Positions 4,086 to 58,622 of a stretch of DNA of 64,000 nucleotides are shown piece by piece (position 1 is the stretch's first letter; each line of letters starts with the position of its first letter). Below the pieces are notes generated by a model. It worked only from the letters and a program-made list of their open reading frames with translations. It was not told where the DNA came from and searched no databases. A program made the translations under genes and the position numbers. The DNA comes from Acidobacteriota bacterium (lineage in GTDB: Bacteria; Acidobacteriota; Vicinamibacteria; Vicinamibacterales; JAKQTR01): assembly GCA_040752275.1 (NCBI GenBank), contig JBFMFH010000002.1, positions 5,958 to 69,957 of the forward strand. The letters run 5' to 3'.

Positions 4086-4558
4086 GGCCTGCACCTCGAG
4101 GTGCAGGACGACACCGCCCCGACGATCTTCGTGTACCCGGTGCAGCGGCACAGGTTGCCGCCGAGTTCATGGCGGATGTCCTCCTCGGTGGCGTCGGGTG
4201 CCCGCTCGAGCAGATGGACCGAGGACATGACCATGCCGGGCGTGCAGAAACCGCACTGGATGGCGCCGTGCTCGACGAAGGCCCGCTGCACACGGTGGAG
4301 TTCCGTGCCGGATGGCGCAATCCCCTCGATGGTCCGGACCTCTTGGGCGTCCGCCTCGATCGCCAGCGTCAGGCAGGAATTGACCGGCCGGCCGTTCAGC
4401 AAGACGGTACAGGCCCCGCAGTCGCCTGTCTCGCAACCGACCTTCGTCCCGGTCAGCCGCAGATCGTCGCGCAGTACCTCGGCCAATGTCCGGTTCGGCT
4501 TCACCGCCAAGGAGTGTTCATCGCCGTTGACGACAAGCGTCACGATTCGTGTCTTCAT
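4082..4558 (-). CDS. (2Fe-2S)-binding small subunit of the xanthine dehydrogenase family enzyme
   Basis: Has two Cys clusters, CETGDCGACTV and CGFCTPGMV...CRCTGY. The S-M-L gene order uses overlapping start/stop codons. Confidence 0.9.
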   Translation of the reverse strand: MKTRIVTLVVNGDEHSLAVKPNRTLAEVLRDDLRLTGTKVGCETGDCGACTVLLNGRPVNSCLTLAIEADAQEVRTIEGIAPSGTELHRVQRAFVEHGAIQCGFCTPGMVMSSVHLLERAPDATEEDIRHELGGNLCRCTGYTKIVGAVSSCTSRCRP

Positions 4559-6071: not shown

Positions 6072-6944
6072 ATGGCAGTCCTGATTGACACGTCGACACG
6101 CCTGCTGGTGCAGGGCCTCACCGGGCGCGAGGGCACGTTCCACGCCAAGGCCGCCGCGGCCTACGGCACAACCGTCGTCGGGGGCGTGACCCCCGGCAAG
6201 GGTGGCACGACCCACGAGGGATGGCCCATCTTCAACACCGTGGCCGAAGGCGTCGAGAAGGCAGGCGCCAACGCGACCGTCATCTTCGTGCCGCCGCCCT
6301 TCTCGGCCGATGCGATTCTCGAGGCGGCCGACGCCGGTGTGGGCCTGGCGGTGTGCATCACGGAGGGCATCCCGACGCTCGACATGATGAAGGTCATGGC
6401 CGTGCTGAAGGAGAAGAAGACGCGCCTGGTCGGGCCGAACTGCCCGGGCGTGATCTCGGCAGGCCGCGCCAAAGCCGGCATCATTCCTGGTCACATCTGC
6501 AAGGAAGGCCGCGTCGGGATTGTCTCGCGCAGCGGCACGCTGACCTACGAGGCGATTCACCAGTTGACGCTGCTGGGGCTCGGGCAGACCACCTGCATCG
6601 GCATCGGCGGCGATCCGCTCATCGGTACCAACTTCATCGACGCGCTGGCGCTCTTCAACGCAGACCCCGAGACCGAGGGCATCGTCCTTATTGGCGAGAT
6701 CGGCGGCAGTGCCGAGGAAGAGGCCGCGGCGTTCATCAAGGACAACATCAAGAAGCCCGTCGTCAGCTTCATCTGTGGGCAGACGGCGCCTCCGGGACGA
6801 CGGATGGGTCACGCCGGCGCGATCATCGCCGGCGGCAAGGGTACGGCGGCCGAGAAGATGGCGGCGCTCACCGCGGCCGGTGTCCGCGTCGTCAAGAGCC
6901 CCGCCGATATCGGGCAGGCGATGGCGGGAGCGCTGAAGAAGTAG
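6072..6944 (+). CDS. sucD: succinate--CoA ligase subunit alpha
   Basis: Has the CoA-binding motif [12 protein letters not shown] and the catalytic His loop [10 protein letters not shown]. Lies 9 bp after sucC. Confidence 0.95.
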
Positions 6945-10805: not shown

Positions 10806-11206
10806 CGCTGACTGACTCCGCGCGATCGCGTCGCCCCGGGCGTACGACCCAAAGAAACGAACCAACACGACCCGCTCGCCGAACCGGCGGCGCAGTCCAG
10901 TCACACTCGCCTGAGGCGGTTCGTGGACCGGTGCCGGAAGCCGTGCACCAGCCACGCTCGTCATGGTGCGGTCATTGTACCACCGCCGACATCGGCCCAG
11001 ATTCGGATGAGTTGGTGCTACTCTAGTCTGACCGGAGCCGGTTTCGTCACCCACCCTCGCTCGAACTGCAGGGCTGACGCCCTGCACGACGTGGTCATGG
11101 AACCGGTTCTTCGGTGCGACCCGGGCGACCTTTCGAGGATCGAGTCCGGATCCGCCCGTGCCGCCCGAAGCGACGTTCACACCAAGGCTCACGCTGGGGG
11201 TGTCAC

Positions 11207-17775: not shown

Positions 17776-19534
17776 CAAGCTCGGAGATTGGGCACGCACG
17801 CACACGTGCGGCGAACTGCGTGTGGAGCATGTCGGGCAAGAGGCCCTGTTGCTGGGGTGGGTGCACCGCGTGCGCGACCTCGGCGGCCTGGTCTTTCTCG
17901 ACCTGCGCGATCGGCACGGACTGACCCAGATCGTGTTCGACCGCCACGGCTTGTGCGAGCGCGCCCGGCAGGTCCGCGCCGAGTTCGTGGTCGGCGTCCG
18001 CGGCCTGGTGCGCCATCGGGCCGGAGACGCCGTCAATCCAAGGATGCCCACCGGCGCCGTCGAGGTCGTGGCGGGCGAGTTCAAGATCCTCAGCCACGCC
18101 CGCGTCCCGCCCTTCGTGATTGCCGACGAGGTGGCGGCCTCCGAGGAATTGCGGCTGCGATACCGGTACCTCGACCTGCGCCGGCCGGCCCTGCAGGCCA
18201 ACCTCGGGCTCCGGCACCGCATCACGATGGCCGTGCGCAAGTACTTCGACAGCGTCGGTTTCTGGGAGGTGGAGACGCCCGTCCTGACCAGGTCGACGCC
18301 GGAGGGCGCCCGCGACTACCTCGTGCCAAGCCGCGTGCATCCTGGCGAGTTCTACGCCCTGCCGCAGTCGCCGCAGATCTTCAAGCAGATCCTGATGATT
18401 GCCGGCACCGACCGCTACTTCCAGATCGTCAAGTGTTTTCGCGACGAGGACCTGCGGGCGGACCGGCAGCCGGAGTTCACCCAGATCGACGTCGAGATGT
18501 CGTTTGCGACACGCGAGATGGTGTTTGCGACCATTGAGCCGCTCATCCGGGACGTGTTCCGGGTCATCGGGCGCGATGTCAACATGCCGTTTCCCCGCAT
18601 GACCTACGCCGACGCGATCGCAAAGTACGGGTCGGACAAGCCGGACCTGCGCGTCGGAATGGCCATCACCGACGTGTCCAGCGTGTTCGTTGGGTCAGGC
18701 TTTGGCCCCTTCCGCGACGCTGTGGCTGCCGGCGCTGCAGTGCGTGGGTTCGTCGTGCCAGGCGCCTCGGCCTTCTCGCGCAGGCAGCTCGACGACCTGA
18801 ACGAGCGGGCGCGCGCGCTGGGTGCAGGCGGCGTGGTCTGGGCCCGGCGTCCGGGAGGAACCGTCCAGAGTTCCGCCCTGAAGGCTGCGGGCGGACCCAC
18901 GGTGACTGCGGCACTCGACGCGGCGCAGGCGGGGGAGCAGGACCTGCTCCTCATGTGCGCCGGGGCGCCGGACGCCGCCTCGAAGGTGCTCGGCCAGTTG
19001 CGCCTCGACATCGCAAGGAGCCAGGGGTGGCTCAAGCCCGACGAGTTTGCCTTCACCTGGGTGACGGAATTCCCCCTGCTCGAGCGGGACGAGGCGGAGG
19101 GGCGCTGGGTGGCCATGCACCACCCGTTCACCTCGCCGATCGAGTCCGACATGGATCGTCTCGAAGAGGATCCGGGCGGCGTGAAGGCCCAGGCCTACGA
19201 CCTCGTGCTGAACGGCGCCGAGATTGGCGGCGGCAGCATCCGCATCCACGACAACGCCTTGCAGAAGAGGATGTTCCGGGCGCTGGGCATCAGCGACGAC
19301 GAGGCGAGGCTTCGATTCGGGTTCTTCCTCGAGGCCCTCGAATACGGCACGCCGCCTCATGGCGGCATCGCCCTCGGTCTCGACCGCATCGTCGCCATGC
19401 TGGCGGGCGAGCCGTCGATCCGTGACGTCATCGCCTTCCCCAAGACAACCCAGGCGGTCGACCTGATGTCGGCCGCGCCCTCCGCCGTTGACGGCCGCCA
19501 ATTGAAGGACCTCCGGCTGCGGGTCGAACCTTGA
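17768..19534 (+). CDS. aspS: aspartate--tRNA ligase
   Basis: THTCGELR...FLDLRDRHGLTQIVF anticodon-binding OB fold, plus QSPQIFKQ and GGIALGLDRI. The GTG start overlaps the hisS stop. Confidence 0.95.
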   Translation: MVDKLGDWARTHTCGELRVEHVGQEALLLGWVHRVRDLGGLVFLDLRDRHGLTQIVFDRHGLCERARQVRAEFVVGVRGLVRHRAGDAVNPRMPTGAVEVVAGEFKILSHARVPPFVIADEVAASEELRLRYRYLDLRRPALQANLGLRHRITMAVRKYFDSVGFWEVETPVLTRSTPEGARDYLVPSRVHPGEFYALPQSPQIFKQILMIAGTDRYFQIVKCFRDEDLRADRQPEFTQIDVEMSFATREMVFATIEPLIRDVFRVIGRDVNMPFPRMTYADAIAKYGSDKPDLRVGMAITDVSSVFVGSGFGPFRDAVAAGAAVRGFVVPGASAFSRRQLDDLNERARALGAGGVVWARRPGGTVQSSALKAAGGPTVTAALDAAQAGEQDLLLMCAGAPDAASKVLGQLRLDIARSQGWLKPDEFAFTWVTEFPLLERDEAEGRWVAMHHPFTSPIESDMDRLEEDPGGVKAQAYDLVLNGAEIGGGSIRIHDNALQKRMFRALGISDDEARLRFGFFLEALEYGTPPHGGIALGLDRIVAMLAGEPSIRDVIAFPKTTQAVDLMSAAPSAVDGRQLKDLRLRVEP

Positions 19535-42722: not shown

Positions 42723-42886
42723 CCTATCCGCCGGCCCTCACGGACCGCAGAACGGCGCGCACCTGGGACGGGCGACAGACACGCACGCTCCAGAACGGTC
42801 CCCGTCGTGCCGTGCGCCCGTTGACGCCGGGTGGCGCGCGGTGGTAGAACACTGGCGACAGTCCGGCCCTCATCAAGGTGACTCTC

Positions 42887-43435
42887 ATGCACATGAGCCC
42901 GCACCGCCTCACGATCCTCCTGACGGTCCTGTTGCTGTTGGTACTGAGCGCGGCTGCGGGCGCTCAGGACCGATCGGCGGCGCTCGTCAAGGAACTCACG
43001 GGCCTGATGGAGACGGCCAAGATGACGACCGTAGCCGCGAAGGACCCGGGCGGCACCGACAGGTACACGGCTGCGATGTTCTTCCCCGGAAGCCAATTGC
43101 TCGTGGTGACGGCGAAGTACGAGCCTGCGGTGCTCCTCGATGACAAGCTCGCCAAGAAGGAATATCAGGACATCTACATCGACTTGAACAGCGCTGCCGT
43201 ACCGAACACGCGGGTGTTCTTCGAGGACCTCGGCGCCGACGGCCTCAAACCGGATCGCGAGGAAGGGAAGGCGATGGACTCGGTGGAGATGGGGGGCAAA
43301 CGCACCATCTTCGACGACGAATGGCGGAAGGACCAGAAGATCTCCGAGGCCGACTGGGCCAAGACGTTCGGCGACGCCGAGAAGGTCTACGTACGGCTGC
43401 TCGAAGCGCTCGTGGCCCAGGCCAAGAGGCGGTAG
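42887..43435 (+). CDS. secreted hypothetical protein
   Basis: Signal peptide M(H)MSPHRLTILLTVLLLLVLSAAAGAQD. Start ambiguous among GTG 42878, ATG 42887 and ATG 42893. Confidence 0.55.
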   Translation: MHMSPHRLTILLTVLLLLVLSAAAGAQDRSAALVKELTGLMETAKMTTVAAKDPGGTDRYTAAMFFPGSQLLVVTAKYEPAVLLDDKLAKKEYQDIYIDLNSAAVPNTRVFFEDLGADGLKPDREEGKAMDSVEMGGKRTIFDDEWRKDQKISEADWAKTFGDAEKVYVRLLEALVAQAKRR

Positions 43436-43614
43436 CAGCGCCAGGGGCGAACATCGCGCCCGACGATTCCCAACGACTGCACCATCGCGGACACGTCCGC
43501 CGCCTTCGTCTTGCAGGCGGTCAACACCTCCAGCGCACAGGATACGCCCGCCTGCGCCGGTCGCATGCGCCCGCGAGCGGCCCGCGTGCAGGCGCGGCGG
43601 AGGGGATCGCCGGG

Positions 43615-43620
43615 TACAAT
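43615..43620 (+). promoter_or_regulatory. -10-like TACAAT 6 nt upstream of GTG 43627 (leaderless candidate)
   Basis: gggTACAATgacagcGTG, with no SD. Confidence 0.35.
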
Positions 43621-43626
43621 GACAGC

Positions 43627-45552
43627 GTGGACTTCCTGGAGCCTTTCCGTCGTTCATCCTGGCGTGGGTCCGTGCCCGCGCTGCTGGCCGGCTCGGCAGT
43701 GCTTCTAGTCGGCGCGGCGTCTCCAGGACCCATCCTGCGCCAGACCCAGCGCGCGCAGCAGCCGCAGGACGTCCAGCAGCCCCAACAGCCCGTGTTCCGC
43801 GCAGGCGTGAGCCTCGTTCGCGTGGACGTGTCCGTGCGCGATCGCCGCGGTCGACCCATCGACGATTTGCAGGCCGACGACTTCGAAGTCTTCGAGGACG
43901 GCGTGCGGCAGACGATCGCGACATTGCAGCTGGTGAGCATCGACGGGCAGCCAGCGCCTGGCGACGACACGTCACTCGAGATTCGGTCCCAGGAGCACGC
44001 GCGGGCCGAGGCGGCGCGCGAGGACGTCCGGCTGTTCGCGATCCTCCTCGACGACTACCACATCTCGAAGCTGCCCCTCGGCATCATGCTGCGGCTTCGT
44101 CCGGCCCTGCTGGACTTCGTCCGCCAGTTCGCGCCAACGGACCTCGTGGCCGTCCTCGACCCTCTCACGCCGTTGAGCGCAGTCGAGTTCACCCGGAGCC
44201 GCTACGAGCTGGAAGAGCGAATCCGGAAGCTCGAGGGGAGGAAAGGGGAGTATTTCCCCATCAAGAGTGCGCTCGAGGAGTTTCACGCGCGGCAGCCGAA
44301 CGTCGCAGAGCTTCGGGCCGACCTGTCGCTCTCGACGCTCGAGGCTATCGTGACCTACCTCGGAGGGCTTCGCGAAGGCCGGAAGTCGGTCCTGTTCGTC
44401 AGCGAGGGGCCGCCCTTCACGCGGCCGGGACAGGCGCTCGACCACAGGGTCCGCGCCGTCATCGAGGCGGCGAACCGGGCGAATGTGACCATTCACGTGC
44501 TCGAACCGCGCGAGTTCGGTCCCGGTGACATCTGGGTCCGCGAGGTGCTGTTCCGATTCGCCAGCGAGACGGGTGGGCGACAGATCAGCAATCCCGAGGA
44601 CGACCGGGTGGGACTCAGCCAGGTGATCACGGACGCGAGCGCCTACTATCTGGTCGGCTACACCCCAACCCGGGAGTTCAACGACGGCAAGTTCCACGAG
44701 ATCGAGGTCAAGGTGAAGCGGTCGGGGACACAAGTGGCGGCCCGCAAAGGCTACTGGGCGCCGAAGGCCGAAGACATCGAGGCTGCCGCCAGGGCCGCGG
44801 CCGCGCGGCCGGATGTCCCGGGTCTAGAGGAGGCGCTATCGGGCCTGTCGGGTCCCCGCAGCGGAAGACCCGTTCGACTGTGGCAGGGTTTCGGGCCCGG
44901 GGGCGACTCGCTCACGCGAGTCACGCTGACCTGGGAGCCGGAGGAGGAGGGTGGGCTGCGGGCTGGAACCGCCACCCGCCTCACGATCGAGGTGCCGTCC
45001 GAGGAGCCGGGGACCGAGCCGAGGCTGGCTGTCACCACGGTGAGTGTCGGGAAGGAGGCCGATGGACCGACGGCGGCGTCGTTCGTGCACCCGCCAGGCT
45101 CGGCGACGCTGAGGCTGACCGCCCTGGGTGATGATGGGCGTGTGATCGACAAGTGGACGGCTCGCGTCGACGTGCCTGACTTCTCGGCGGCTCCGGTCGG
45201 CCTGGCGACCCCGCGCTTCTATCGTGCCCGGACGTTCCAGGCGTTCCGCCAACTGCAGGCCGCCGCGAATCCGACGCCGGTGGCCGCGCGGACCTTCCGC
45301 CGAACCGATCGCGTGCTCGTTGACCTGGCCGGCAGCGCGAAGACCGAAGAGCCACCGGCCCTGAAGGTGGAGTTGCTCGGGAGCACTGGGCAGATGCTGT
45401 CCGAGATGCCGCTGCCGGAACCCTCCGGCGGGCGCGTGCGGTTCGAACTCCCGGTTGGGCGCATCGCACCCGGCACATACGTCCTCCGCATCCAGGCGGT
45501 GGCCGGCGACCAGAAGGCCGAGCTGCTGGAGGCGTTCAAGATCGTTCCCTGA
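43627..45552 (+). CDS. large secreted VWA domain protein, second 'VWFA-related Acidobacterial' paralog
   Basis: FRAGVSLVRVDVSVRDRRGRPIDDLQADDFEVFEDGVRQTI parallels the N-terminus of the 38927 gene. Hydrophobic leader SVPALLAGSAVLLVGAASPG. The upstream 102 codons were rejected. Confidence 0.75.
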   Translation: MDFLEPFRRSSWRGSVPALLAGSAVLLVGAASPGPILRQTQRAQQPQDVQQPQQPVFRAGVSLVRVDVSVRDRRGRPIDDLQADDFEVFEDGVRQTIATLQLVSIDGQPAPGDDTSLEIRSQEHARAEAAREDVRLFAILLDDYHISKLPLGIMLRLRPALLDFVRQFAPTDLVAVLDPLTPLSAVEFTRSRYELEERIRKLEGRKGEYFPIKSALEEFHARQPNVAELRADLSLSTLEAIVTYLGGLREGRKSVLFVSEGPPFTRPGQALDHRVRAVIEAANRANVTIHVLEPREFGPGDIWVREVLFRFASETGGRQISNPEDDRVGLSQVITDASAYYLVGYTPTREFNDGKFHEIEVKVKRSGTQVAARKGYWAPKAEDIEAAARAAAARPDVPGLEEALSGLSGPRSGRPVRLWQGFGPGGDSLTRVTLTWEPEEEGGLRAGTATRLTIEVPSEEPGTEPRLAVTTVSVGKEADGPTAASFVHPPGSATLRLTALGDDGRVIDKWTARVDVPDFSAAPVGLATPRFYRARTFQAFRQLQAAANPTPVAARTFRRTDRVLVDLAGSAKTEEPPALKVELLGSTGQMLSEMPLPEPSGGRVRFELPVGRIAPGTYVLRIQAVAGDQKAELLEAFKIVP

Positions 45553-45627
45553 AGGAACTGCGGGATCCGGCGCGGAGTCCACTCGACATCCTGTGGGGGC
45601 GTGTGGGACGGTGACGGGGCCGGAGGG

Positions 45628-45674
45628 GCGTGGTGGGCGCTAGTGGATTCGAACCACTGACCCCCGCCGTGTGA
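45628..45674 (-). repeat. distal att repeat: orphan copy of the 3' half of tRNA-Val (CCA end through the anticodon)
   Basis: Base-for-base identical to 50914-50960. The sequences diverge immediately after gtga. Confidence 0.9.
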
Positions 45675-46057
45675 CGTCGGACTGGTTCGGCTGTCTGTGC
45701 GCTGGGGATCCCGCGCAGGCCGAGCAGTCGTTGATCGGGCTGGTGGCGCGCGTGCCCGCCGAGGTCGGCGCGCCGTCTGCGGAACGCCCGGATCCGATCG
45801 CGCGGTTGCGGGATGAGCTCGCCACATTGGAGGCGGCCGAAGAGCAGGCCGTTGACAACGCGATTTCGGCCGGCGTGATCGTCGCCCATCGGCCCGCGGT
45901 GGTTCAGCGGCGCGAGAACGAGAAGCGCCGGCGCGAGCTCGACGAACAGGCCGTGGCCCGCCGCGCCGAACGCCAGCGCGCCCTCGATGCGCAGTTTGGC
46001 AACCAGGCGCCGCGCGCGATGGCGAGTCAGTACATCGCGTCGAATGGGAAGCTCTGA
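45671..46057 (+). CDS. hypothetical protein (island)
   Basis: GC3-rich ORF with a charged coiled-coil-like C-terminus. Its stop lies 2 nt before the next ATG. The start is uncertain. Confidence 0.35.
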   Translation: MTSDWFGCLCAGDPAQAEQSLIGLVARVPAEVGAPSAERPDPIARLRDELATLEAAEEQAVDNAISAGVIVAHRPAVVQRRENEKRRRELDEQAVARRAERQRALDAQFGNQAPRAMASQYIASNGKL

Positions 46058-46059
46058 CG

Positions 46060-46425
46060 ATGGTCGGCCCCGTAGCGCATCCGCCGCATGCGACCGGCCG
46101 CCTGGCCGACGTGCTCCAGCGCGTCAACCAGGTCTGGCTGAACGGCCCACCGACGCCCGAGCTCGTTCCGGCTCCGCCCGTGTCGCGCCGTGAACGCCCC
46201 GCGTTGAGGACGATCGGCCGTTGGCAACTGTTCATGGGCCGGCCGGCCACGGGGCGAGACATCGGGCCGGCGTTCCGACACGTGCGGGCGCTTCGAGATC
46301 GGGACCTCGTGGAGCGTCGACGGCTGGCGCTCGTGCGTCCGCTGTCCGACCTGTATCGTCAGCGCGTCGACGAGATCGTCCGTCAGGCCACCATCGACCT
46401 GCTCGCCGACCAGGAGACATTCTAG
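46060..46425 (+). CDS. hypothetical protein (island)
   Basis: ATG lies 2 nt after the upstream stop. GC3-rich. No family recognised. Confidence 0.4.
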   Translation: MVGPVAHPPHATGRLADVLQRVNQVWLNGPPTPELVPAPPVSRRERPALRTIGRWQLFMGRPATGRDIGPAFRHVRALRDRDLVERRRLALVRPLSDLYRQRVDEIVRQATIDLLADQETF

Positions 46426-46832
46426 CAGGCCGGGAGTCCCCCGGCTCTGCCGGGGTGGCAGCCAAAGTTTGACGTTTCCGGGAGTGTGTCCACCGGTGGA
46501 TGCCTCCAGCGTGAGCCGCCAAGCGCACGGGTGGAAGCACCGTGGTGGACACGCGATGAGTCTGGTTCACCGGGTCGGGAAGCGCAAGTCACGCGGTGAC
46601 GCTGGACCTCGGCGCTGGGAGTCCGCACGCGTTGCGCGAGGTGCCATGGGGCGCGCCCCGTCAGCCGGGGAGTCGCGAGTTCGCGGCGTTCTTCGGCCGC
46701 TTTGAGCGGCCCCGGAATGACAGCCCCCGACTTTGCCGGGGGATTGTTACCTGATCGAGTCGTGCCGGTCAGGCTCACTCCACCTGATCGGGCGAGCGGA
46801 CTGCGGCCCTTTTCACCTGAGTGAGTGACACC

Positions 46833-47196
46833 ATGCGCACCGACCCCAAGCCGCAAGTTCGCACTTGCCTCGATTGCGGTCGGCGCTTTGAGATCAGCGT
46901 CGACGAGTAACGATTCCTCCGAGAGCGTGAGACGGCCGATGGGCTGCCGTGGGAATTGCCCGCGCGGTGTTTCGAATGCCAGCATGAACGGCGCCGCGCG
47001 TTGCAACGCATCAGCGCGGACGCGGAGGCGAAGGACTACCGCTTCAGGTGCGTCAACCTGCTCGGCGGCATTCGTCTTCACGGCGGATGATGTCGAGCAC
47101 TTTCGTGCGCGCGGTCACTGCTAGCCAAAGCGGTGCCCGGCCTGTCGCGTGGCGCGCCGATCGTCGACACCCGTTTCGACAAGGAGCTCATCGTGA
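46833..47196 (+). pseudogene. double CxxC...CxxC zinc-ribbon protein, inactivated (TAA, +1 frameshift, TAG)
   Basis: MRTDPKPQVRTCLDCGRRFEISVDE-TAA(46908)-RFLRERETADGLPWELPARCFECQHERR...CVN / frameshift / CSAAFVFTADDVEHFRARGHC-TAG(47122)-PKRCPACRVARRS. The final TGA overlaps (GTGA) the next gene's start. Confidence 0.55.
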
Positions 47197-47567
47197 ACGT
47201 GAATCAGCCGTTTCCCCCAAAGTATCTCCGGCCGGCGGACGTGGGCGACACGTCGCCCGCCGTGACCATCGAGCGCGTCGAGGTCGAGGAAGTCGGGCGA
47301 ACGAAGGAAGTCAAGCCGGTCGTGTACTTCGCCGGCAGGACGAAGGGGTTGATCCTCAACCGGACGAACGCCCGGAAGATCGAAGAGCTTGTCGGCTCCG
47401 CCGAAACCCACGACTGGCCGGGGAATCGCATCCGGCTCTGCGTGTCTGCCGTCGAGTTCGGCGGCGAGACGGTCGACGCGTTGCGCATCAAGCCGGCGGG
47501 GCCGTCCGCGGCGATGGCGCCGACACCGCCCGTGCGACGGCCCGCCCCGGCTGACGACGTGACGTGA
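47193..47567 (+). CDS. phage-type small hypothetical protein
   Basis: AAGGAG is 6 nt before GTG 47193. PPKYLRPADVGD...VVYFAGRTKGLILNRTNARKIEELVGSAETHDWPGNRIRL resembles small conserved prophage proteins (from memory). Confidence 0.55.
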   Translation: MNVNQPFPPKYLRPADVGDTSPAVTIERVEVEEVGRTKEVKPVVYFAGRTKGLILNRTNARKIEELVGSAETHDWPGNRIRLCVSAVEFGGETVDALRIKPAGPSAAMAPTPPVRRPAPADDVT

Positions 47568-47611
47568 CCGCCGATGACATTCCGTTCTGACCTGACAGGA
47601 GGCTGCCAGCT

Positions 47612-47860
47612 ATGGCTCGACGACGACAGACCGCCAACCTGATCCGGGAGAGCCGGGTGCTCGCCCGCGGCGCGGCGCACGTCCTGGACGTGCTGAAGGC
47701 GTAGCATCCCGATTGCGACGAGGCCCGCGTGGCGCTCAAGTGCGTGCTGGAGTTCGAGGCCGAGCTCACGGAGGCGGCCGACCGCCTGCCGGCCCCAGCG
47801 CCTCGTAGGGACACGGCCGGATCCAGCCACGCTAACAGCCACGCCACCGGACCATCGTAG
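47612..47860 (+). pseudogene. small ORF with a strong SD, interrupted by an in-frame TAG at 47702
   Basis: AGGAGG is 8 nt before ATG 47612. MARRRQTANLIRESRVLARGAAHVLDVLKA-TAG-HPDCDEARVALKCVLEFEAELTEAADRL..., and coding-like character continues past the stop. Confidence 0.3.
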
Positions 47861-47975
47861 CGTGGCGCCCGAAGTGGAGTGTCCGGCGAGGTCTCCCGCC
47901 GCGGCTGTCGTGGCCGAGCGCGGCGGAGACGGGGGACTTGACGCGCATAAGGAAACCGCTTTATGCTCTGCTGTG

Positions 47976-48158
47976 ATGGCGCGTAAGCTGACGAACTTCT
48001 GGATCGATGCGGACCTGGCGGCCGGGCTGCACGACGTGAAGAACCGTGAGGGGATTCCGGTCGGAGAGCAGATCCGGCGGGCCGTGCGCGCGTGGCTGAT
48101 TGAGAAGCGCGTCATCAAGGCGGAGCGCAAGCGGGCGGGCACCCGCCGGCGCTCCTGA
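47976..48158 (+). CDS. ribbon-helix-helix (CopG-like) DNA-binding protein
   Basis: MARKLTNFWIDADLAAGLHDVKNREGIPVGEQIRRAVRAWL shows a beta-strand, helix, helix pattern. 60 aa. Confidence 0.55.
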   Translation: MARKLTNFWIDADLAAGLHDVKNREGIPVGEQIRRAVRAWLIEKRVIKAERKRAGTRRRS

Positions 48159-48240
48159 ACCGTCAACCTGCGCGAGACAGGCTGGCGATCTGCGGGTGAT
48201 TCTACCAGCAGCCCGCCGGCCTCCGTCCCGGGAGGCCCGA

Positions 48241-48459
48241 ATGGCAATCCTACGACTGCGTACGACCTGGGCGTCGATCCGACGCCTGCCCGAAGACACC
48301 CTCCGCCGTTGCGAAGGCGCAACCCGCTTGCACAATGAGGCGTTGCTCTCCGAGATCGGGCTCGAGCTCGGCGCGGTGCCGGACTGGCTGATCCTCAATC
48401 GGGCGCTGCTGGCGCTCCAGTCGGAGATCCGGGAGGCGCGCGTCTTGGGGCTCGAGTGA
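48241..48459 (+). CDS. hypothetical protein (72 aa)
   Basis: GGGAGG is 6 nt before ATG 48241. Confidence 0.45.
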   Translation: MAILRLRTTWASIRRLPEDTLRRCEGATRLHNEALLSEIGLELGAVPDWLILNRALLALQSEIREARVLGLE

Positions 48460-48495
48460 TGGCCGGTTTGGGCCGTCCACTCAACGTGAGAAGGC

Positions 48496-49161
48496 TCACC
48501 CGGCGTCGAGTCTTGATATGATCAGTTCCCGTGTGAGGTCAATTGCGGCGCGCACGTCTTCAACCTCAAACTCGTCCCACTGTGCGTGCGTTGCCTTTGT
48601 GCGAACGTCGGCGGCAGCGCGAGCGCGCTTCGCCTTCACAGCCGAGAGATCGCCTCGAGAAGCGAGCTCCGAGATCAGGCCATCAAGCTTCCGGTCCTTC
48701 TCGATGAGGCCGGCCTTGCGGCAGGCGCGGCGAAGCACATCCTCAAACACGACACCCGCGATTACACCCGCCTCGTTCTTTCGAGATGCCTCGAGGTAGG
48801 CGTCTGCGTGATCCAGGAAGTCATCAAGAGTCTCCGCCCGAGCACGATCGGCAACAGACGCGAGTAGTCCCGCATCGGCGTCGGCTGCCAGCGCCTGCAG
48901 CACGGCGGCAAGCTCACCAACCGCGTGGTTGACTTCAAAGGCGTGGTCTGCGGTCGCTATGCGATCGGCTTTCTGTCTATAGGGTGCTTCCGGGCTGGGG
49001 CAAACGAAATGAACAGTATTCTGCGCGGCTGTCAGCCAGGCGGAGCACGCTGCCTGCTGGTGTTGGTCAGTGCACTGGCCATACTGGTCACCGACAGCCA
49101 GACGTCCACTCTCGGCGAGGAGTTGCGCGATACGCTGGCGGACGACTTCTTCAATCGCCAT
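48496..49161 (-). CDS. hypothetical protein with a C-terminal HEPN-like (Rx4H) helical domain
   Basis: RTKATH motif is encoded at 48586-48603, within ...GVVFEDVLRRACRKAGL...LISELASRGDLSAVKAKRARAAADVRTKATHAQW.... GGAG is 9 nt before ATG 49161, with an alternative GTG at 49191. Third gene of the operon. Confidence 0.6.
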   Translation of the reverse strand: MAIEEVVRQRIAQLLAESGRLAVGDQYGQCTDQHQQAACSAWLTAAQNTVHFVCPSPEAPYRQKADRIATADHAFEVNHAVGELAAVLQALAADADAGLLASVADRARAETLDDFLDHADAYLEASRKNEAGVIAGVVFEDVLRRACRKAGLIEKDRKLDGLISELASRGDLSAVKAKRARAAADVRTKATHAQWDEFEVEDVRAAIDLTRELIISRLDAG

Positions 49162-49236
49162 AGCTGGAAACTCCGATAGGCCAAGCGGCACCCTGCTTCA
49201 CGTCGTGAAGGAGTGGTCGGGCGCAGCGCGCTGTGA

Positions 49237-49941
49237 TCATGTGGCACCAGGCCGATCTCGGAAGTCGGGCCACTCACGCATGTGGCTCGCGACCCCATCA
49301 ATGGCGTTGGTCAGGATGCCCGCAAACCCAATTCTCGACGCGATTTCCTTCTCATAGAATGGAAGCTTCTTCGGATCAAAGATCGGGCCGAGATGGTGTG
49401 TCCCTCGGCCGATCAGGTCACCCATCGCGATGATGGTCGGATGACTCATCTTGTTGTAGAAACGCTTCGCCTGTGTAGCCACCTCGAGCGCTTCTCGGTT
49501 CAGGCCGAGTTCCTCCGAACGCTTGACGAGCAGGTCTATCGACCTATGAACGGGAAACCGACCTAACCACGCCCGCTGCCGGTACGGCCAGTCGTACTTC
49601 GCGAAGAGGAAGGCCGAGGCAAGAGCCTCCAACGCCTGCCTCTGCGCTCCTCCCGCCATGGTGATGTGCTCGAGGATCAGGAATCTCATCGACAGGAGCA
49701 TCCGAGCCACGACCGTGAAGAGCGCCCCGACAACGGTGGCGCTGTCCTGGTCCCTCGCGAACGTGCTCTCGAACGTTCGCCATCGGTCGTAGACTTCCGC
49801 CGTGGCGGTCTCGAAGCTACTCACTTGAACCTGAAAGTGCTCCAGGAACAGGCGTTCTGTCTCTTCGTCCTGTCGGCCGCGGAGCGCAGCCTGCACTGCG
49901 GCAAGCGCGGACTTGTCCAGCATCGGTTCGTCGTCTGCCAT
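49237..49941 (-). CDS. hypothetical protein (234 aa); faint resemblance to AbiV/DUF5677-type helical proteins
   Basis: Middle gene of the operon. ...HITMAGGAQRQALEALASAFLFAKYDWPYRQRAW...RFYNKMSHPT. Local G+C is low (27 of 60 at 49321-49380). Confidence 0.55.
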   Translation of the reverse strand: MADDEPMLDKSALAAVQAALRGRQDEETERLFLEHFQVQVSSFETATAEVYDRWRTFESTFARDQDSATVVGALFTVVARMLLSMRFLILEHITMAGGAQRQALEALASAFLFAKYDWPYRQRAWLGRFPVHRSIDLLVKRSEELGLNREALEVATQAKRFYNKMSHPTIIAMGDLIGRGTHHLGPIFDPKKLPFYEKEIASRIGFAGILTNAIDGVASHMREWPDFRDRPGAT

Positions 49942-49974
49942 GAACGATCTCGCGCTCGGATGACACCGCTGTGG

Positions 49975-50697
49975 CTACCGCATCGGCGGTCTACTCAGAT
50001 CGTCGGCCTCTCCTGTACGCGGCAACCGGCCGGACGATAGCACGGACCGGTAGCGCTCGATCGACTGCGAGAGCGCTTCAGAAGAGAGCGCACACTCCAG
50101 AAGCACCTCTTCGGCCCTCGCAAGGCCGGTGACACGATCCGGCTGCTCCAGGGCGGCCGCCAGCCTTCTTTGCATCGCGTCGCGGGCCGCCGTGTCGGTC
50201 GGCGCATGCCCCGGAGACGGCTTCCACGCGGCGGTGGCATTCGCGAGAATGCCCTTTCGAAGATCCCAATCGACCGTCACCGTAATCGGGCGCACCAGTT
50301 CCTCTCGGCGTGGCTTGGACACCCCGACGTTGTCTAGGAATCTCTCGAGGTCGTCCCGTCGCCGAAGCATCCTCTCTTGATGATCTCCACCAGCCCAACG
50401 GTTCTCAGACACGATACTGGCAGCCGAAAAGTCCGCCACCCCGATTGCGATGGTCTGGAGCTCCTCGGCCTTCGCGTAGATGTCTGACTTCGCCTGTTGG
50501 ATCTCCCGCAACGTCACGCGGAGGTTCTTAAGATCGAGCACCTGCAGCATGTCGATCCTTGAGATAGCCACAGCCAACAGCAGAGTTGAGACGACGAGCG
50601 TCGTGTACCAGCCGGATCCGAGAGAGCCTGATTGGAGCAGGTGGGTGAAAAGGGCCACGCCGCACACGCCGAGACAGATAGCGATTACGTTGGACAT
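49975..50697 (-). CDS. membrane protein: two N-terminal TM helices plus a coiled-coil/helical cytoplasmic domain
   Basis: VIAICLGVCGVALFTHLL and WYTTLVVSTLLLAVAISRI. GGGGGAGAG SD upstream of ATG 50697. First gene of the operon, adjacent to tRNA-Val. Confidence 0.6.
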   Translation of the reverse strand: MSNVIAICLGVCGVALFTHLLQSGSLGSGWYTTLVVSTLLLAVAISRIDMLQVLDLKNLRVTLREIQQAKSDIYAKAEELQTIAIGVADFSAASIVSENRWAGGDHQERMLRRRDDLERFLDNVGVSKPRREELVRPITVTVDWDLRKGILANATAAWKPSPGHAPTDTAARDAMQRRLAAALEQPDRVTGLARAEEVLLECALSSEALSQSIERYRSVLSSGRLPRTGEADDLSRPPMR

Positions 50698-50913
50698 CTC
50701 GCCGCTCTCCCCCTTTCGGTACGACGGCGCCCCCGCAGCCGGGACCGATGCTCAGGCCGGCCTGAAGGGGAGATGATTGCTTGGCACGTGCCGCCCGTCA
50801 AGCAGGTCCCTGCGCCGTCCTTTCACGCTGCACCACCATTGCACCACGGCCGGAACCACGGGTCCGTTGTCATTTGGAACGCGTGCCCGTAAGTGCTTCG
50901 TGTTCTAGGAGAA

Positions 50914-50960
50914 GCGTGGTGGGCGCTAGTGGATTCGAACCACTGACCCCCGCCGTGTGA
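50914..50960 (-). repeat. proximal att repeat (inside the intact tRNA-Val)
   Basis: Identical to 45628-45674. Confidence 0.9.
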
Positions 50961-50991
50961 AGGCGATGCTCTACCGCTGAGCCAAGCGCCC
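50917..50991 (-). tRNA. tRNA-Val (anticodon CAC), CCA encoded
   Basis: Hand-folded cloverleaf: acceptor GGGCGCT/AGCGCCC, D stem GCTC/GAGC, anticodon stem TCGCC/GGCGG with loop TTCACAC, T arm AGTGG-TTCGAAT-CCACT, discriminator A, CCA. Confidence 0.9.
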
Positions 50992-55659: not shown

Positions 55660-55947
55660 TCACTCACGTCGCGGTCGTCTGTTCAGGCTCGTCGACCGCG
55701 CACGCCGGCGATGTAGCGGCGTATCGTCCGCTCGTCGAGGTGCCCAAGCGGGCTTCGGTCCCCATGTCTTGCCAGGGTGGTAATAGACCACCACCCGTCG
55801 ACGGGTGGCTGCGTTCCCACCCTTGACGTAACCCAACGTGGCCCCGGATTTCGATTCGAGTATCCAGCCGTCCCGTTCTGATGCCCGCCTGAGCGCGTCT
55901 GCGGAGAGGCTTCTTACCTGGCTCCAGACGTGTGAGGGATGGGCCAC
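55660..55947 (-). pseudogene. HicA-like toxin ORF whose 3' end runs into a remnant of an integrase C-terminus
   Basis: The N-terminal part LSADALRRASERDGWILESKSGATLGYVKGG...RRVVVYYHPGKTWGPK is HicA/YcfA-like. In another frame, 55664-55740 encodes SPLGHLDERTIRRYIAGV, which is paralogous to the integrase end at 56380-56450. Confidence 0.4.
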
Positions 55948-56333
55948 TGCAGCTCCAAGTTGCGAAGGAGGGCGCCCACGGGGACCTGGAACTGCTCGTG
56001 TTGTCTCTCCTGCTCAGTCGTCAGATCCGGGCCGATGGGGAAGGGATCCCCATGCTTGACCAGTGACATCAGATATAGCTCGACGGCTTCTTTGGCGTTC
56101 TCCAACGCCTCCGGAACGGAACCGCCGGAAACATGCAGGCCCTTCAGCGCCGGGCAGAATGCGTGAAACTCGTCGCCATCGGGCTCGACGATCACCGCCA
56201 CCGCCAGCTTGACTTGGCAGTCGGGCTGCGACGGTCTACCAAGCAGATGCAAGAGGTTCATGGTCGAAATCACCCTGTCTATCCTATATATCGTTTGACG
56301 CCTGTCAAGGATTAGCGGTTTCAGCGTCCTCAT
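55914..56333 (-). CDS. HicB-like antitoxin (UPF0150 / HicB_lk_antitox fold)
   Basis: VAVIVEPDGDEFHAFCPALKGLHVSGGSVPEALENAKEAVELYLMSLVKHGDPFP. Start is either ATG 56333 (ATGA overlap with the integrase stop) or ATG 56261. Confidence 0.6.
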   Translation of the reverse strand: MRTLKPLILDRRQTIYRIDRVISTMNLLHLLGRPSQPDCQVKLAVAVIVEPDGDEFHAFCPALKGLHVSGGSVPEALENAKEAVELYLMSLVKHGDPFPIGPDLTTEQERQHEQFQVPVGALLRNLELQWPIPHTSGAR

Positions 56334-57010
56334 TTCTTGCCCATCTGAACGGGCAGCCGATCACTCACCTTCGCCGCTGCGTCCGCCTCGAGCTCGTCGA
56401 GCACGCCGGCGAGGTAGCATAGCATCGTCCGCTCGTCCCGGTGGCCCAGTGGGCGACCGGCCAGGGACACAGATCGGGTGGTTCCGGCGACGAGCTCGGC
56501 GAACGAGTGGCGCAGCACGTAGGGCGTCACGTCCTTCGGGATGTGCAGCTTCGGGTGCCGGCGCCGGGCCGCCTTCACCGCCCGGCTGAAGACCAGCTCG
56601 AGCGTCGAGTTCGCGCACCCGCCCCAGGCCTCCGCCTCCCTGAACATCTTGAGCGCCGCGGCGCCCTGCTTCGTGACCGCGCGACGCGTCGCCACGACGC
56701 CCTGACCCTTCAGCCGTTCCGGGGCCTCGAACCGGCCCTCGTCGAGGCGCGCCAGGTGGTCCGGCCTCAGGAGCCCCTGCTGCGCCGGCGGCAGGCCCGT
56801 GTAGGCTTACACGAACAGGCAGGCCTTGGCCTTTGGACCGGGCCTTCGCGCGCGGCTTCACGTCGCGATCGGGGAGCTCGTCGAGGTTGGCGCGGATCGT
56901 GTCATAGGAGGCCCTTCGGCCGCCGCTTCGGCTCCCGGCATGCCGATGAGGACGGTCCCGAGTTGGGCGATAACCTCGACTGGTCCTCGCGTTCCTTGAC
57001 ACCGATACCG
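56330..57010 (-). pseudogene. tyrosine recombinase (phage integrase family), N-terminally truncated, frameshifted, with an in-frame TAA
   Basis: The C-terminal catalytic region is intact in one frame (TPYVLRHSFAELV...GRPLGHRDERTMLCYLAG). Upstream, ...KACLFV-TAA(56807-56809)-AYTGLPPAQQGLLRPDHL. Further upstream, SYDTIRANLDELP is in a different frame. Confidence 0.7.
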
Positions 57011-57223
57011 GTAACTAGATAACCTTGGGGTGTGCACGAAGAAAAACCGAAAGTCGCGTGCGCGATCTCTCCGGACTGGAAGAAACCCCCGGCGAGCCTG
57101 GGGCCTCGCGATGCGGCGACGGCGGCTTCCGCCTCTTCCGCCTCGGGGTGTGTTGACAACGTCCGCCGAATCTGTCACGGTCTTGCGTTGGCCGCAGCGA
57201 CCCACTCATACGACGACACACTC

Positions 57224-58213
57224 ATGGCGATCCTCCTGAATGACGTTGAGCTTAGGAAGCTGCTTGGGACTGTCATCCAGGATGGCGACGCGGAATCGAT
57301 TCGGCCGAATTCGTACGTGTTGCGTCTGGGGCCAATGGGCGAGTTTCTGAACACGGGCAAGGAATTCGAGCTGGGGGACAAGAAGAAGGGAATCCGGATT
57401 GCGCCCGGACACTCGGTCGCGGTCACTGGCCTCGAGACGATCGACTTCCGGCTAGATACGGTCAGGAAGGTATTCCCTGAAAGCGATCTCCATGGCATCG
57501 TAAGCCCAACCACCGACCTGTCACGCGAAGGGATCGTGGCTCCGACTACCCAGATTGACGCGGGCTTCTTCGGCACCCTCAATTGGACTCTCACAAATAC
57601 GTCAAGCGAGGAGCGGCGCTTCGTCCACAAGGAACGGATCTTTCGACTGGCGATCTTCAGACTCGAGAAGGACGAGCGGCCGGAGTCCCTGTACGGTGGG
57701 ACCTATCAGAGCCGGATCGGGTATGTTCGCTCTCAGCGACGAGGTGCGCCCACTGGCATGAAGGAGGTCGAGTGGGAAGATGGTCAGGCAAAGGGAAGCC
57801 CAGAGGATCTGCTCGACAATCTGGTGAAGTCTGGGTATCCGTGGCACGCGCTAGGTCAGCGGCTGATGCTGATCGACCAGCAATTCAAGTCGGTGACGCT
57901 TGAGTACGCCGATCTACGCGAGGCTATTGAGCGTCTGACTGCAGACCTTTCTGCCGTACGTGAACGTCAGGCCGGGATCAGCGACACCGTGCGCGCCGTC
58001 CTGCGGGAGGAGGCCAACGCCTTACAGAACCGATGGTTGCTCGGTTCAGGCTCCTTACTGTTCGCAGCACTCGGGGCCGGCGTGTCGATCCTCGCGAGTG
58101 ACGCTGCTCGTGGGTTTGTGACGCAATATGGCGTCATCGTTGGACTGGCGATCGTCCTGCTAAGCCTAGTAAGCCTAGGCTCTCTGTTCCTCCAATCGAG
58201 ACTGCGACGTTAG
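57224..58213 (+). CDS. dCTP deaminase/dUTPase-fold domain fused to a coiled coil and two C-terminal TM helices
   Basis: MAILLNDVELRKLLGTVIQDGDAESIRPNSYVLRLG... IAPGHSVAVTGLE...SPTTDLSREGIVAPTTQIDAGFFGTLNWTLTNTS...RIFRLAIFRLE...YGGTYQSRIG parallels E. coli Dcd as I remember it. The C-terminus has WLLGSGSLLFAALGAGVSILA and YGVIVGLAIVLLSLVSLGSLFL. The upstream 64 codons were rejected. Confidence 0.7.
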   Translation: MAILLNDVELRKLLGTVIQDGDAESIRPNSYVLRLGPMGEFLNTGKEFELGDKKKGIRIAPGHSVAVTGLETIDFRLDTVRKVFPESDLHGIVSPTTDLSREGIVAPTTQIDAGFFGTLNWTLTNTSSEERRFVHKERIFRLAIFRLEKDERPESLYGGTYQSRIGYVRSQRRGAPTGMKEVEWEDGQAKGSPEDLLDNLVKSGYPWHALGQRLMLIDQQFKSVTLEYADLREAIERLTADLSAVRERQAGISDTVRAVLREEANALQNRWLLGSGSLLFAALGAGVSILASDAARGFVTQYGVIVGLAIVLLSLVSLGSLFLQSRLRR

Positions 58214-58443
58214 TGCCCCGACGGTTTCTTCCACGTTGTGCAAGCGAGGCGGTCGGCAATGTGCGTCATGAACGTAGGCCGACCGTGCGGCAACGGCACT
58301 GTGGATTATCGCGGCACTCCTCTACTTGCACCTGTTCAAGTGAGAGGTGAGCTGCCGCTTCGGTTCGTTCTTGGCTTGGCTGCCGAGGGTCCTACCAGAA
58401 TCGGGCCCGGGTGGGTGAGGTACGGGTTGTCCTGGGTGTCACA

Positions 58444-58462
58444 GGACGTCACCGGACGTCAC
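58444..58462. repeat. tandem GGACGTCAC x2 (10-bp period) near the tRNA-Gly 3' end
   Basis: acaGGACGTCACcGGACGTCACac. A second tandem, GATTGCGG x2, lies at 58519-58535. Confidence 0.5.
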
Positions 58463-58548
58463 ACAACCTGTGGAAAACCGACACGGCGCGACGCGCGAAA
58501 CCGGGCCAGTTCCTGCTGGATTGCGGGGATTGCGGCGCGAAGGTAGGG

Positions 58549-58622
58549 TGGAGCGGGCTACGGGGATCGAACCCGTGTGGCTGGCTTGGGAAGCCAGAGC
58601 ATTACCACTATGCTAAGCCCGC
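58549..58622 (-). tRNA. tRNA-Gly (anticodon CCC), CCA encoded
   Basis: Hand-folded: acceptor GCGGGCT/AGCCCGC, D stem GCAT/ATGC, anticodon stem CTGGC/GCCAG with loop TTCCCAA, T arm ACGGG-TTCGATC-CCCGT, discriminator T, CCA. Confidence 0.9.

Follow-up and report, generated by a model that had tools for sequence, protein, structure and literature searches.

A probable integrative-element remnant at the anticodon loop of tRNA-Val(CAC) in an Acidobacteriota genome

A 5.2-kb island in the genome of a soil Acidobacteriota bacterium (contig JBFMFH010000002.1) is most probably the remnant, now decayed, of a small integrative element, temperate-phage-like or satellite-like in nature, that was inserted into a tRNA-Val(CAC) gene by a tyrosine integrase. 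The island occupies positions 45675-50913 of the 64-kb stretch of DNA that was analyzed, referred to here as the window, and is enclosed by two exact copies of the 47-mer GCGTGGTGGGCGCTAGTGGATTCGAACCACTGACCCCCGCCGTGTGA, which have the same orientation, no mismatches and a spacing of 5286 bp (Table 1). An earlier note on this DNA had placed one copy within an intact tRNA-Val(CAC) gene and had described the other as an orphan fragment, and exact searching, ARAGORN and Rfam agree that this is the case. In tRNA orientation, the 47-mer opens with U33 of the anticodon loop, takes in the T arm and the acceptor stem and closes three nucleotides (CGC) past the encoded CCA. ARAGORN calls no tRNA at copy 1, and the tRNA gene is the sole match in an Rfam scan of the island. 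The possibility raised in the same note, that the repeat is a member of a dispersed family, finds no support in the window, which contains two exact copies of the 47-mer and no third copy at up to three mismatches; matches were found in 0 of 100 dinucleotide shuffles. Imperfect likeness outlasts the 47 bp at either end, reaching 58 nt at 93% identity (45622-45679 versus 50908-50965). The anticodon stem contributes some of its 5' strand to this longer match, which is what would be expected if the attachment site of the element (attP) mimicked the tRNA. No third att-like remnant, which would be a sign of tandem accretion, was detected inside the island, where the best local alignment scores 25 compared with 23 ± 2.4 for shuffled sequences.

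The orphan fragment is the terminal 3' piece of the tRNA gene and is located downstream of the tRNA 3' end in direct orientation. It shares only 4 nt with the small open reading frame (ORF) o1, which has no Pfam domain, and 75 bp beyond it is the stop codon of a VWA-like gene, the C-terminus of which is intact and agrees with that of the closest relative, L001 (see below). According to the standard model of integration, the orphan would be the displaced native 3' half, while the 3' half in the intact gene, on the attL side, would have been supplied by the element. The native DNA past the tRNA would then have been CGCCCCTCCGGCCCC..., with the stop codon of the VWA-like gene 75 bp on, and hence the tRNA would have lain directly beside the VWA-like gene in the ancestor. 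The attP of the element is envisaged as a duplicate of the tRNA sequence between the anticodon loop and a point three nucleotides past the CCA. With the crossover in the anticodon loop, integration would have rebuilt an intact tRNA (attL, 50914-50991), and the native 3' half would have been carried to the opposite end of the element (attR, 45628-45674), where it adjoins the VWA-like gene.

Table 1. Features of the island and of the tRNA-Val(CAC) gene, in window coordinates
Feature	Position	Strand	Remarks
Repeat copy 1, orphan tRNA-Val 3' fragment (attR side)	45628..45674	-	
o1, small ORF	45671..46057	+	GC3 0.82-0.85 (o1, o2); no family matches
o2, small ORF	46060..46425	+	GC3 0.82-0.85 (o1, o2); no family matches
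Miniature IS200/IS605-like element, without tnpA	46432..46750	+	~320 bp; in apparently non-coding gap
zf_Tbcl tandem treble-clef zinc-ribbon pseudogene	46833..~47150	+	TAA at 46908-46910, frameshift, second in-frame stop
o4, phage-type gene	47196..47567	+	phrog_21613; PHROGs E 2.3e-15
Interrupted ORF	47612..47860	+	In-frame TAG at 47702-47704
Ribbon-helix-helix (RHH, CopG-type) small protein	47976..48158	+	PF01402 E 0.0055, below cut-off
o7, small ORF closing the plus-strand block	48241..48459	+	
Gene C, DUF4145/HEPN-type protein	48496..49161	-	R-x4-H motif RTKATH
Gene B, all-helical protein, small family	49237..49941	-	
Gene A, N-terminal membrane anchor, small family	49975..50697	-	
Repeat copy 2, within the intact tRNA gene	50914..50960	-	U33 (anticodon loop) to CCA plus CGC
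tRNA-Val(CAC), intact	50917..50991	-	75 nt including encoded CCA; ARAGORN; Rfam RF00005, 67.4 bits; identical (75/75) to the tRNA of L001

Comparison with related loci, all of them from outside the genus of the window, shows that the island is absent from the relatives found. The closest relative, L001, is a contig of a Vicinamibacterales metagenome-assembled genome (MAG) that was retrieved via the flanking citrate-synthase-like (CS-like) protein (79-80% identity at the amino acid level). Its gene order follows that of the window to either side of the site, with tRNA-Gly, hpt, an amidohydrolase gene, upp, the CS-like gene and tRNA-Val on one side and the VWA-like gene together with a DUF gene on the other. 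L001 holds a single copy of the 47-mer and no orphan, and no island-like sequence was found in it. Between its tRNA-Val and VWA-like gene are 6.5 kb of other genes, which are housekeeping-like and host-like in GC content and which, as far as their translations can be read by eye, look like those of an FGE-type enzyme, membrane proteins, a GMC oxidoreductase and a Gfo/Idh/MocA oxidoreductase. A search with an alignment of the CS-like proteins provided 17 metagenome loci, and most of those reaching past the CS-like gene retain upp, the CS-like gene and tRNA-Val(CAC), the exceptions being L016 and L024/L025, which are considered below. No island genes were found in the loci extending past the CS-like gene, and a second tRNA half was found in none of the 10 loci tested. 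The orphan and the island interior, which the earlier note had considered might turn out to be syntenic in relatives, are therefore missing from L001 and from the metagenome relatives that reach the site. The interpretation of the two repeat copies as attL and attR, also put forward in that note, is upheld by the geometry, by the lack of both island and orphan in all relatives found, by the use of the same tRNA in L016 and L024/L025 and by the phage-type genes of the interior.

The window, L016 and L024/L025 have three different elements in the same tRNA-Val, which supports site-specific integration centered on the anticodon loop. In L016, the native tRNA-Val(CAC) is split into a 5' part (11124-11163) and a 3' part (18896-18942), and the break is marked by a 12-bp direct repeat, CCTTCACACGGC, which corresponds to the anticodon loop. 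The insert of 7.7 kb has a tyrosine integrase (PF00589, E 1.6e-8) that abuts the 5' part of the tRNA, together with an XRE regulator and VWA-like and BlaR1/BlaI-type genes. It also carries a divergent 77-nt tRNA-Val(CAC) of its own (18511-18587), and as this element breaks the host tRNA-Val without rebuilding it, the additional gene is apparently a self-supplied replacement. In L024 (10887-10939) and L025, only the 3' half of the tRNA and the anticodon stem are present beside the CS-like gene, followed by unrelated and very GC-rich DNA, while L023, which is 98% identical up to the break, has an intact tRNA (4296-4370) followed by backbone genes that are read from their translations as DUF, UvrB and VWA-like. 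L024/L025 and L023 look like an occupied and an intact allele at this tRNA-Val, from a lineage farther removed from the window.

The genes located between tRNA-Val(CAC) and a conserved DUF/UvrB/VWA block differ in each of the lineages examined, and the interval from the tRNA to the DUF gene measures 2.6-8.5 kb among relatives (window, 42878-50913; L001, 11153-20920; also L013, L017, L020 and L021). Its contents, judged by eye from translations, appear to include oxidoreductases and RluA-like, PIN-like, Uma2-like and VWA-like genes. Because the content is different in each lineage, the interval past tRNA-Val is better described as a lineage-wide turnover hotspot than as a two-state site that is either occupied or empty, and the three different elements in the one tRNA indicate that it is a place of recurrent integration as well.

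The island itself has a left part on the plus strand (45675-48459), with a GC content of 0.69 and a GC content at third codon positions (GC3) of 0.71-0.89 that is host-like (0.85-0.88 in host genes), and a right part on the minus strand (48460-50913), with a GC content of 0.62 and a GC3 of 0.64-0.75 in its genes A, B and C. The affinities of the left part are phage-like. Relatives of o4 were found in five IMG/VR contigs (36-52% identity) and in lambdoid phages of Klebsiella and Pseudomonas (33% identity), where their place in the early-left region is flanked by the Gam and YqaJ genes. A homologue of the RHH protein that is 65% identical is encoded on the TerL-bearing viral contig L042, where it passes the Pfam cut-off and precedes a tyrosine integrase of the same strand by 0.87 kb. 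From its sequence, the RHH protein of the island is possibly a regulator or an excision cofactor, and a promoter scan places a promoter-like site (47938-47967) ahead of its gene. For o1 and o2 there are no relatives in IMG/VR, and no structural, packaging, lysis or replication gene was matched in the island by Pfam or PHROGs. In the comparison with phages that had been proposed in the earlier note, the island DNA has no match among 50,697 phage records, and the o4 and RHH proteins have phage or viral relatives. Judged from this gene content, the left part is what remains of a temperate-phage-like early or integration region.

The decay of internal genes that had been noted previously is also evident. 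The zf_Tbcl pseudogene, if its reading frame is repaired, matches PF13451 in two stretches (E 4e-12), and the ORF at 47612-47860, interrupted by TAG, is a probable pseudogene. What had been overlooked is the miniature element between o2 and the zf_Tbcl pseudogene, so that the previous statement that the island lacks integrases and transposases is correct with respect to genes, none being found for either, and incomplete with respect to transposon-derived sequence. At its left end (46432-46551) and its right end (46696-46750), this element is ~77% identical to the regions flanking tnpA in copies of the ISMex34 family on plasmids of Achromobacter, Methylorubrum and Methylosinus, and these ends are the only match of the island DNA to plasmids. 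Both fold as hairpins (z about -2.9). The first two codons of tnpA (GTG-GAC) remain and are followed by a stop, and a tblastn search of the element with the TnpA of ISMex34, a Y1 transposase, was negative, as was an Rfam search. Miniature elements derived from IS200/IS605 similarly have both ends with subterminal hairpins and no transposase. In contrast to a propagating family of miniature inverted-repeat or palindrome-associated transposable elements (MITE/PATE), there is one copy in the window, and it may be a one-off internal deletion. In the proposed history of the island, its left part would be the older one and would have gained nonsense and frameshift mutations together with this IS200-like insertion, itself without tnpA.

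None of the island ORFs is a recombinase according to Pfam (no PF00589), PADLOC or PHROGs, and tblastn and six-frame searches of the island with the tyrosine integrases of L016, L004 and L042 gave a best E value of 0.2, which is noise. By analogy with L016 and L042, the integrase would have been located between RHH/o7 and the tRNA and would later have been deleted or replaced by genes A, B and C, which now form a 2.4-kb block of lower GC content on the opposite strand at that position. It might be argued instead that the element never had an integrase and was a hitch-hiker, comparable to a cis-mobilizable element (CIME) or a satellite, on the integrase of a related element that targets tRNA-Val. 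This would explain why no trace of an integrase is left and why both att copies are perfect even though interior genes decay, integrase-bearing elements are present at the same anticodon-loop site in relatives (L016), and CIMEs, in which attL and attR are intact and recombination genes are lacking, form a recognized class (PMC6323972). Yet neutral decay would hardly have reached a stretch of 47 bp by now, so that little can be read from the perfection of the copies, no helper element is present in the 64-kb window, and the linkage of the RHH homologue to an integrase in L042 suggests that the ancestral module had one. The A-B-C block, compositionally distinct and at the expected position of the integrase, fits a replacement. 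An element that was always without an integrase is therefore considered improbable.

A truncated C-terminal piece of a tyrosine integrase (56330-~56860), with stop codons upstream, is the sole integrase-like sequence that the window contains. It was rejected as the lost integrase of the island because it lies outside the repeats, 5.4 kb away and beyond four conserved housekeeping genes. It adjoins tRNA-Gly, is kept in L001 at 85% nucleotide identity and belongs to a separate and older island linked to tRNA-Gly. This second island remnant, at tRNA-Gly(CCC) (58549-58622), extends over 55690-58622 of the window and includes a short stretch that repeats the integrase C-terminal motif (55697-55753, 81% identical to 56398-56454), a HicB-like ORF (55914-56333, below the Pfam cut-off) and a 393-residue ORF (57032-58213) with a weak, sub-threshold match to a dCTP-deaminase-like DCD domain. 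No orphan fragment of tRNA-Gly was found in the window. L001 has its own attL/attR-type scar at tRNA-Gly(CCC) (1541-1614 and 6203-6247), where the orphan, 4.6 kb downstream of the gene, comprises the sequence from the anticodon loop to the CCA and the pair brackets the homologue (85% at the nucleotide level) of the integrase remnant of the window. This signature is of the same kind as that at tRNA-Val in the window and speaks for the reading of the island as an integrated element.

Several points weigh against the interpretation of the island as an integrated element that has lost its integrase. An exact empty site, with tRNA-Val directly adjoining the VWA-like gene, was found in none of the relatives, in disagreement with the order of VWA-like gene, tRNA-Val and CS-like gene that the earlier note had predicted. 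L001 has 6.5 kb of host-like genes at this position and more distant relatives each differ, and hence the state before integration is deduced from the 75-bp junction alone. An intact relative of this particular element with an integrase did not turn up, and in the IMG/VR and JGI metagenome set there was no exact match to the 47-mer and no free element bearing an attP. The former presence of an integrase is argued by analogy. In addition, the sequence comes from a MAG and both junctions are known from the assembly alone. As a tRNA sequence is a classic place for a chimeric join in such a genome, the repeat could in principle be an artefact of assembly that joins different genomes at a shared tRNA, or else the leftover of a local duplication of the tRNA gene. 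The former would, however, require two independent chimeric joins at one 47-mer in the right order and orientation. Against both are the single tRNA-Val that relatives hold at this locus, the foreign and partly phage-like interior, and the fact that the fragment is exactly the terminal 3' piece from the anticodon loop, as in islands made by integrases (PMC4383910). Such origins of the repeat are very improbable.

The three genes of the right part, A, B and C, are intact, have the same orientation and are separated by gaps of 33-75 bp, with a promoter-like site upstream of gene A (50801-50773, promoter scan). None of them has an above-threshold match in Pfam or a match in PADLOC or PHROGs. Genes A and B represent small families of 11 and 10 proteins, respectively (E ≤ 0.001, the copy in the MAG included). 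Homologues of gene A adjoin a TIR_2 gene, or HEPN_AbiU2 and DruA genes, while those of gene B are near Hachiman genes, an IS110 element and, as read by eye, an Mrr-like gene, or are in a region that ends with an integrase. The structural model of the gene B protein (pLDDT 82) gave weak helical-bundle and HEPN-like matches in a fold search, none of which was convincing. A gene encoding 453-479 residues downstream of gene A homologues was ruled out as a fusion of B and C, as there is no similarity.

Gene C, by comparison, is one of a large family, with more than 1225 homologues of ~220 residues that retain 60-73% identity from one phylum to another (Betaproteobacteria, Nitrospira, Marinimicrobia, Alphaproteobacteria and Acidobacteriota), and this high identity suggests frequent horizontal transfer. 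The homologues occur singly and in unrelated surroundings, such as next to tandem integrases or in between fic and polA. Residues R187, T188, K189, A190 and H192 of the RTKATH motif are invariant in 31 sequences, and the family has one invariant and one near-invariant cysteine. Six of the 31 match DUF4145 (PF13643) and three match HEPN (PF05168), the window protein itself being below the thresholds. Its structural model, which is a confident one (pLDDT 89.5), has HEPN proteins as the top matches in the PDB, with a probability of 1.0 but an E value of about 0.1, and contains the R-x4-6-H motif within a four-helix up-down bundle that is looked for in HEPN proteins.

The proposal in the earlier note that selection has retained an intact three-gene operon is not supported in that form. 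Homologues of A, B and C, when searched for around each of the three genes, are never neighbours elsewhere, which rules out a conserved operon and indicates that these are three independent accessory genes rather than a conserved system. A related explanation is that A-B-C is original cargo of the element kept by selection, for example, for abortive infection or defense, and that the integrase was lost in a separate small deletion. The compact arrangement of three intact ORFs of the same strand behind a promoter-like site is as expected for such cargo, as are the HEPN-type nature of C and the defense-island-like contexts of the homologues of A and B. Moreover, there are four lesions in ~2.07 kb of coding sequence in the left part, so that a uniform distribution of lesions would put about four in the 2.09 kb of A-B-C, and a crude Poisson estimate of finding none is ~0.02. 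Three of these four lesions, however, are within one already-dead gene, and counted per gene the difference (two of seven genes broken in the left part versus none of three in A-B-C) is not significant. The lack of conserved neighbourhood and of any PADLOC match also argues against defense cargo, and the GC3 of A-B-C is clearly below that of the left part, which points to a later arrival and thus to a shorter residence that would explain the intactness of these genes equally well. Selection on A-B-C is possible, and the version in which the three genes are original cargo is unlikely without being far-fetched.

A more speculative proposal is that A-B-C is an undescribed abortive-infection or defense module, co-oriented behind one promoter-like site and captured next to the att site, in an element that still moves by means of the integrase of related tRNA-Val-targeting elements. 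If true, this would be a trans-mobilized 'defense cassette' in Acidobacteriota, and it is regarded as a long shot. In the preferred interpretation of a decayed remnant, the element would be unable to move by itself. As both att copies are intact, excision by a cognate integrase acting in trans might in principle be conceivable. The island matters little beyond annotation, where it adds a degraded integrative element with precise boundaries from a phylum that has received little study (Acidobacteriota, Vicinamibacterales-like). Genes A, B and C are cheap candidates for inclusion in defense-gene screens, above all the widespread 220-residue DUF4145/HEPN family.

Three types of known system are relevant to the classification of the island. 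Phage satellites of the known families (P4-like, PICI and PLE) carry their own integrase, and no hallmark gene of any of the three was detected in the island. It nevertheless resembles cryptic prophages and phage satellites at tRNA genes in having early-region-type ORFs, an RHH protein, a PHROG gene, pseudogenes, an IS remnant and possibly defense-related accessory genes near att, and it has genes with phage homologues (o4, and the RHH protein through L042). It differs from them in being without structural, replication and packaging genes. Islands of the Islander type are defined by a tRNA gene with a cognate fragment that is terminal and on the correct side in the correct orientation, a size between 2 and 200 kb, a fragment clear of conserved protein domains and an integrase inside, and those of the anticodon-centered 'A' class, to which a block of identity starting in the anticodon loop corresponds, account for 2083 of 3919 (PMC4383910). 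The island has all of these properties except a tyrosine integrase inside or overlapping it. It shares with them an intact tRNA gene and a displaced 3' fragment at its ends, a block of identity that starts from the anticodon loop, its size of 5.3 kb and a foreign content that is absent from related genomes, where the site is differently occupied rather than exactly empty. As there is no integrase between the repeats, the Islander filter would reject the island, which is not 'putatively active'.

A further parallel is provided by the CIMEs of Streptococcus and other Firmicutes, as defined in ICEberg 2.0 (PMC6323972). Like these, the island has intact attL and attR sites (47/47 identical, and 58 nt at 93%) and no genes for integration or transfer, and it is plausibly a deletion derivative of an element that was once autonomous. 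CIMEs are, however, defined relative to ICEs (elements that are integrative and conjugative) and IMEs (those that are integrative and mobilizable) and are mobilized by accretion with a conjugative element, while the affinities of the island are phage-like and its host is an acidobacterium. No conjugative element was seen and no oriT is known for the island, and integrase-bearing elements of the L016 type use the same tRNA in relatives. The island is a CIME-like or defective integrative element, and as such it is an ordinary and well-understood kind of genomic island remnant.

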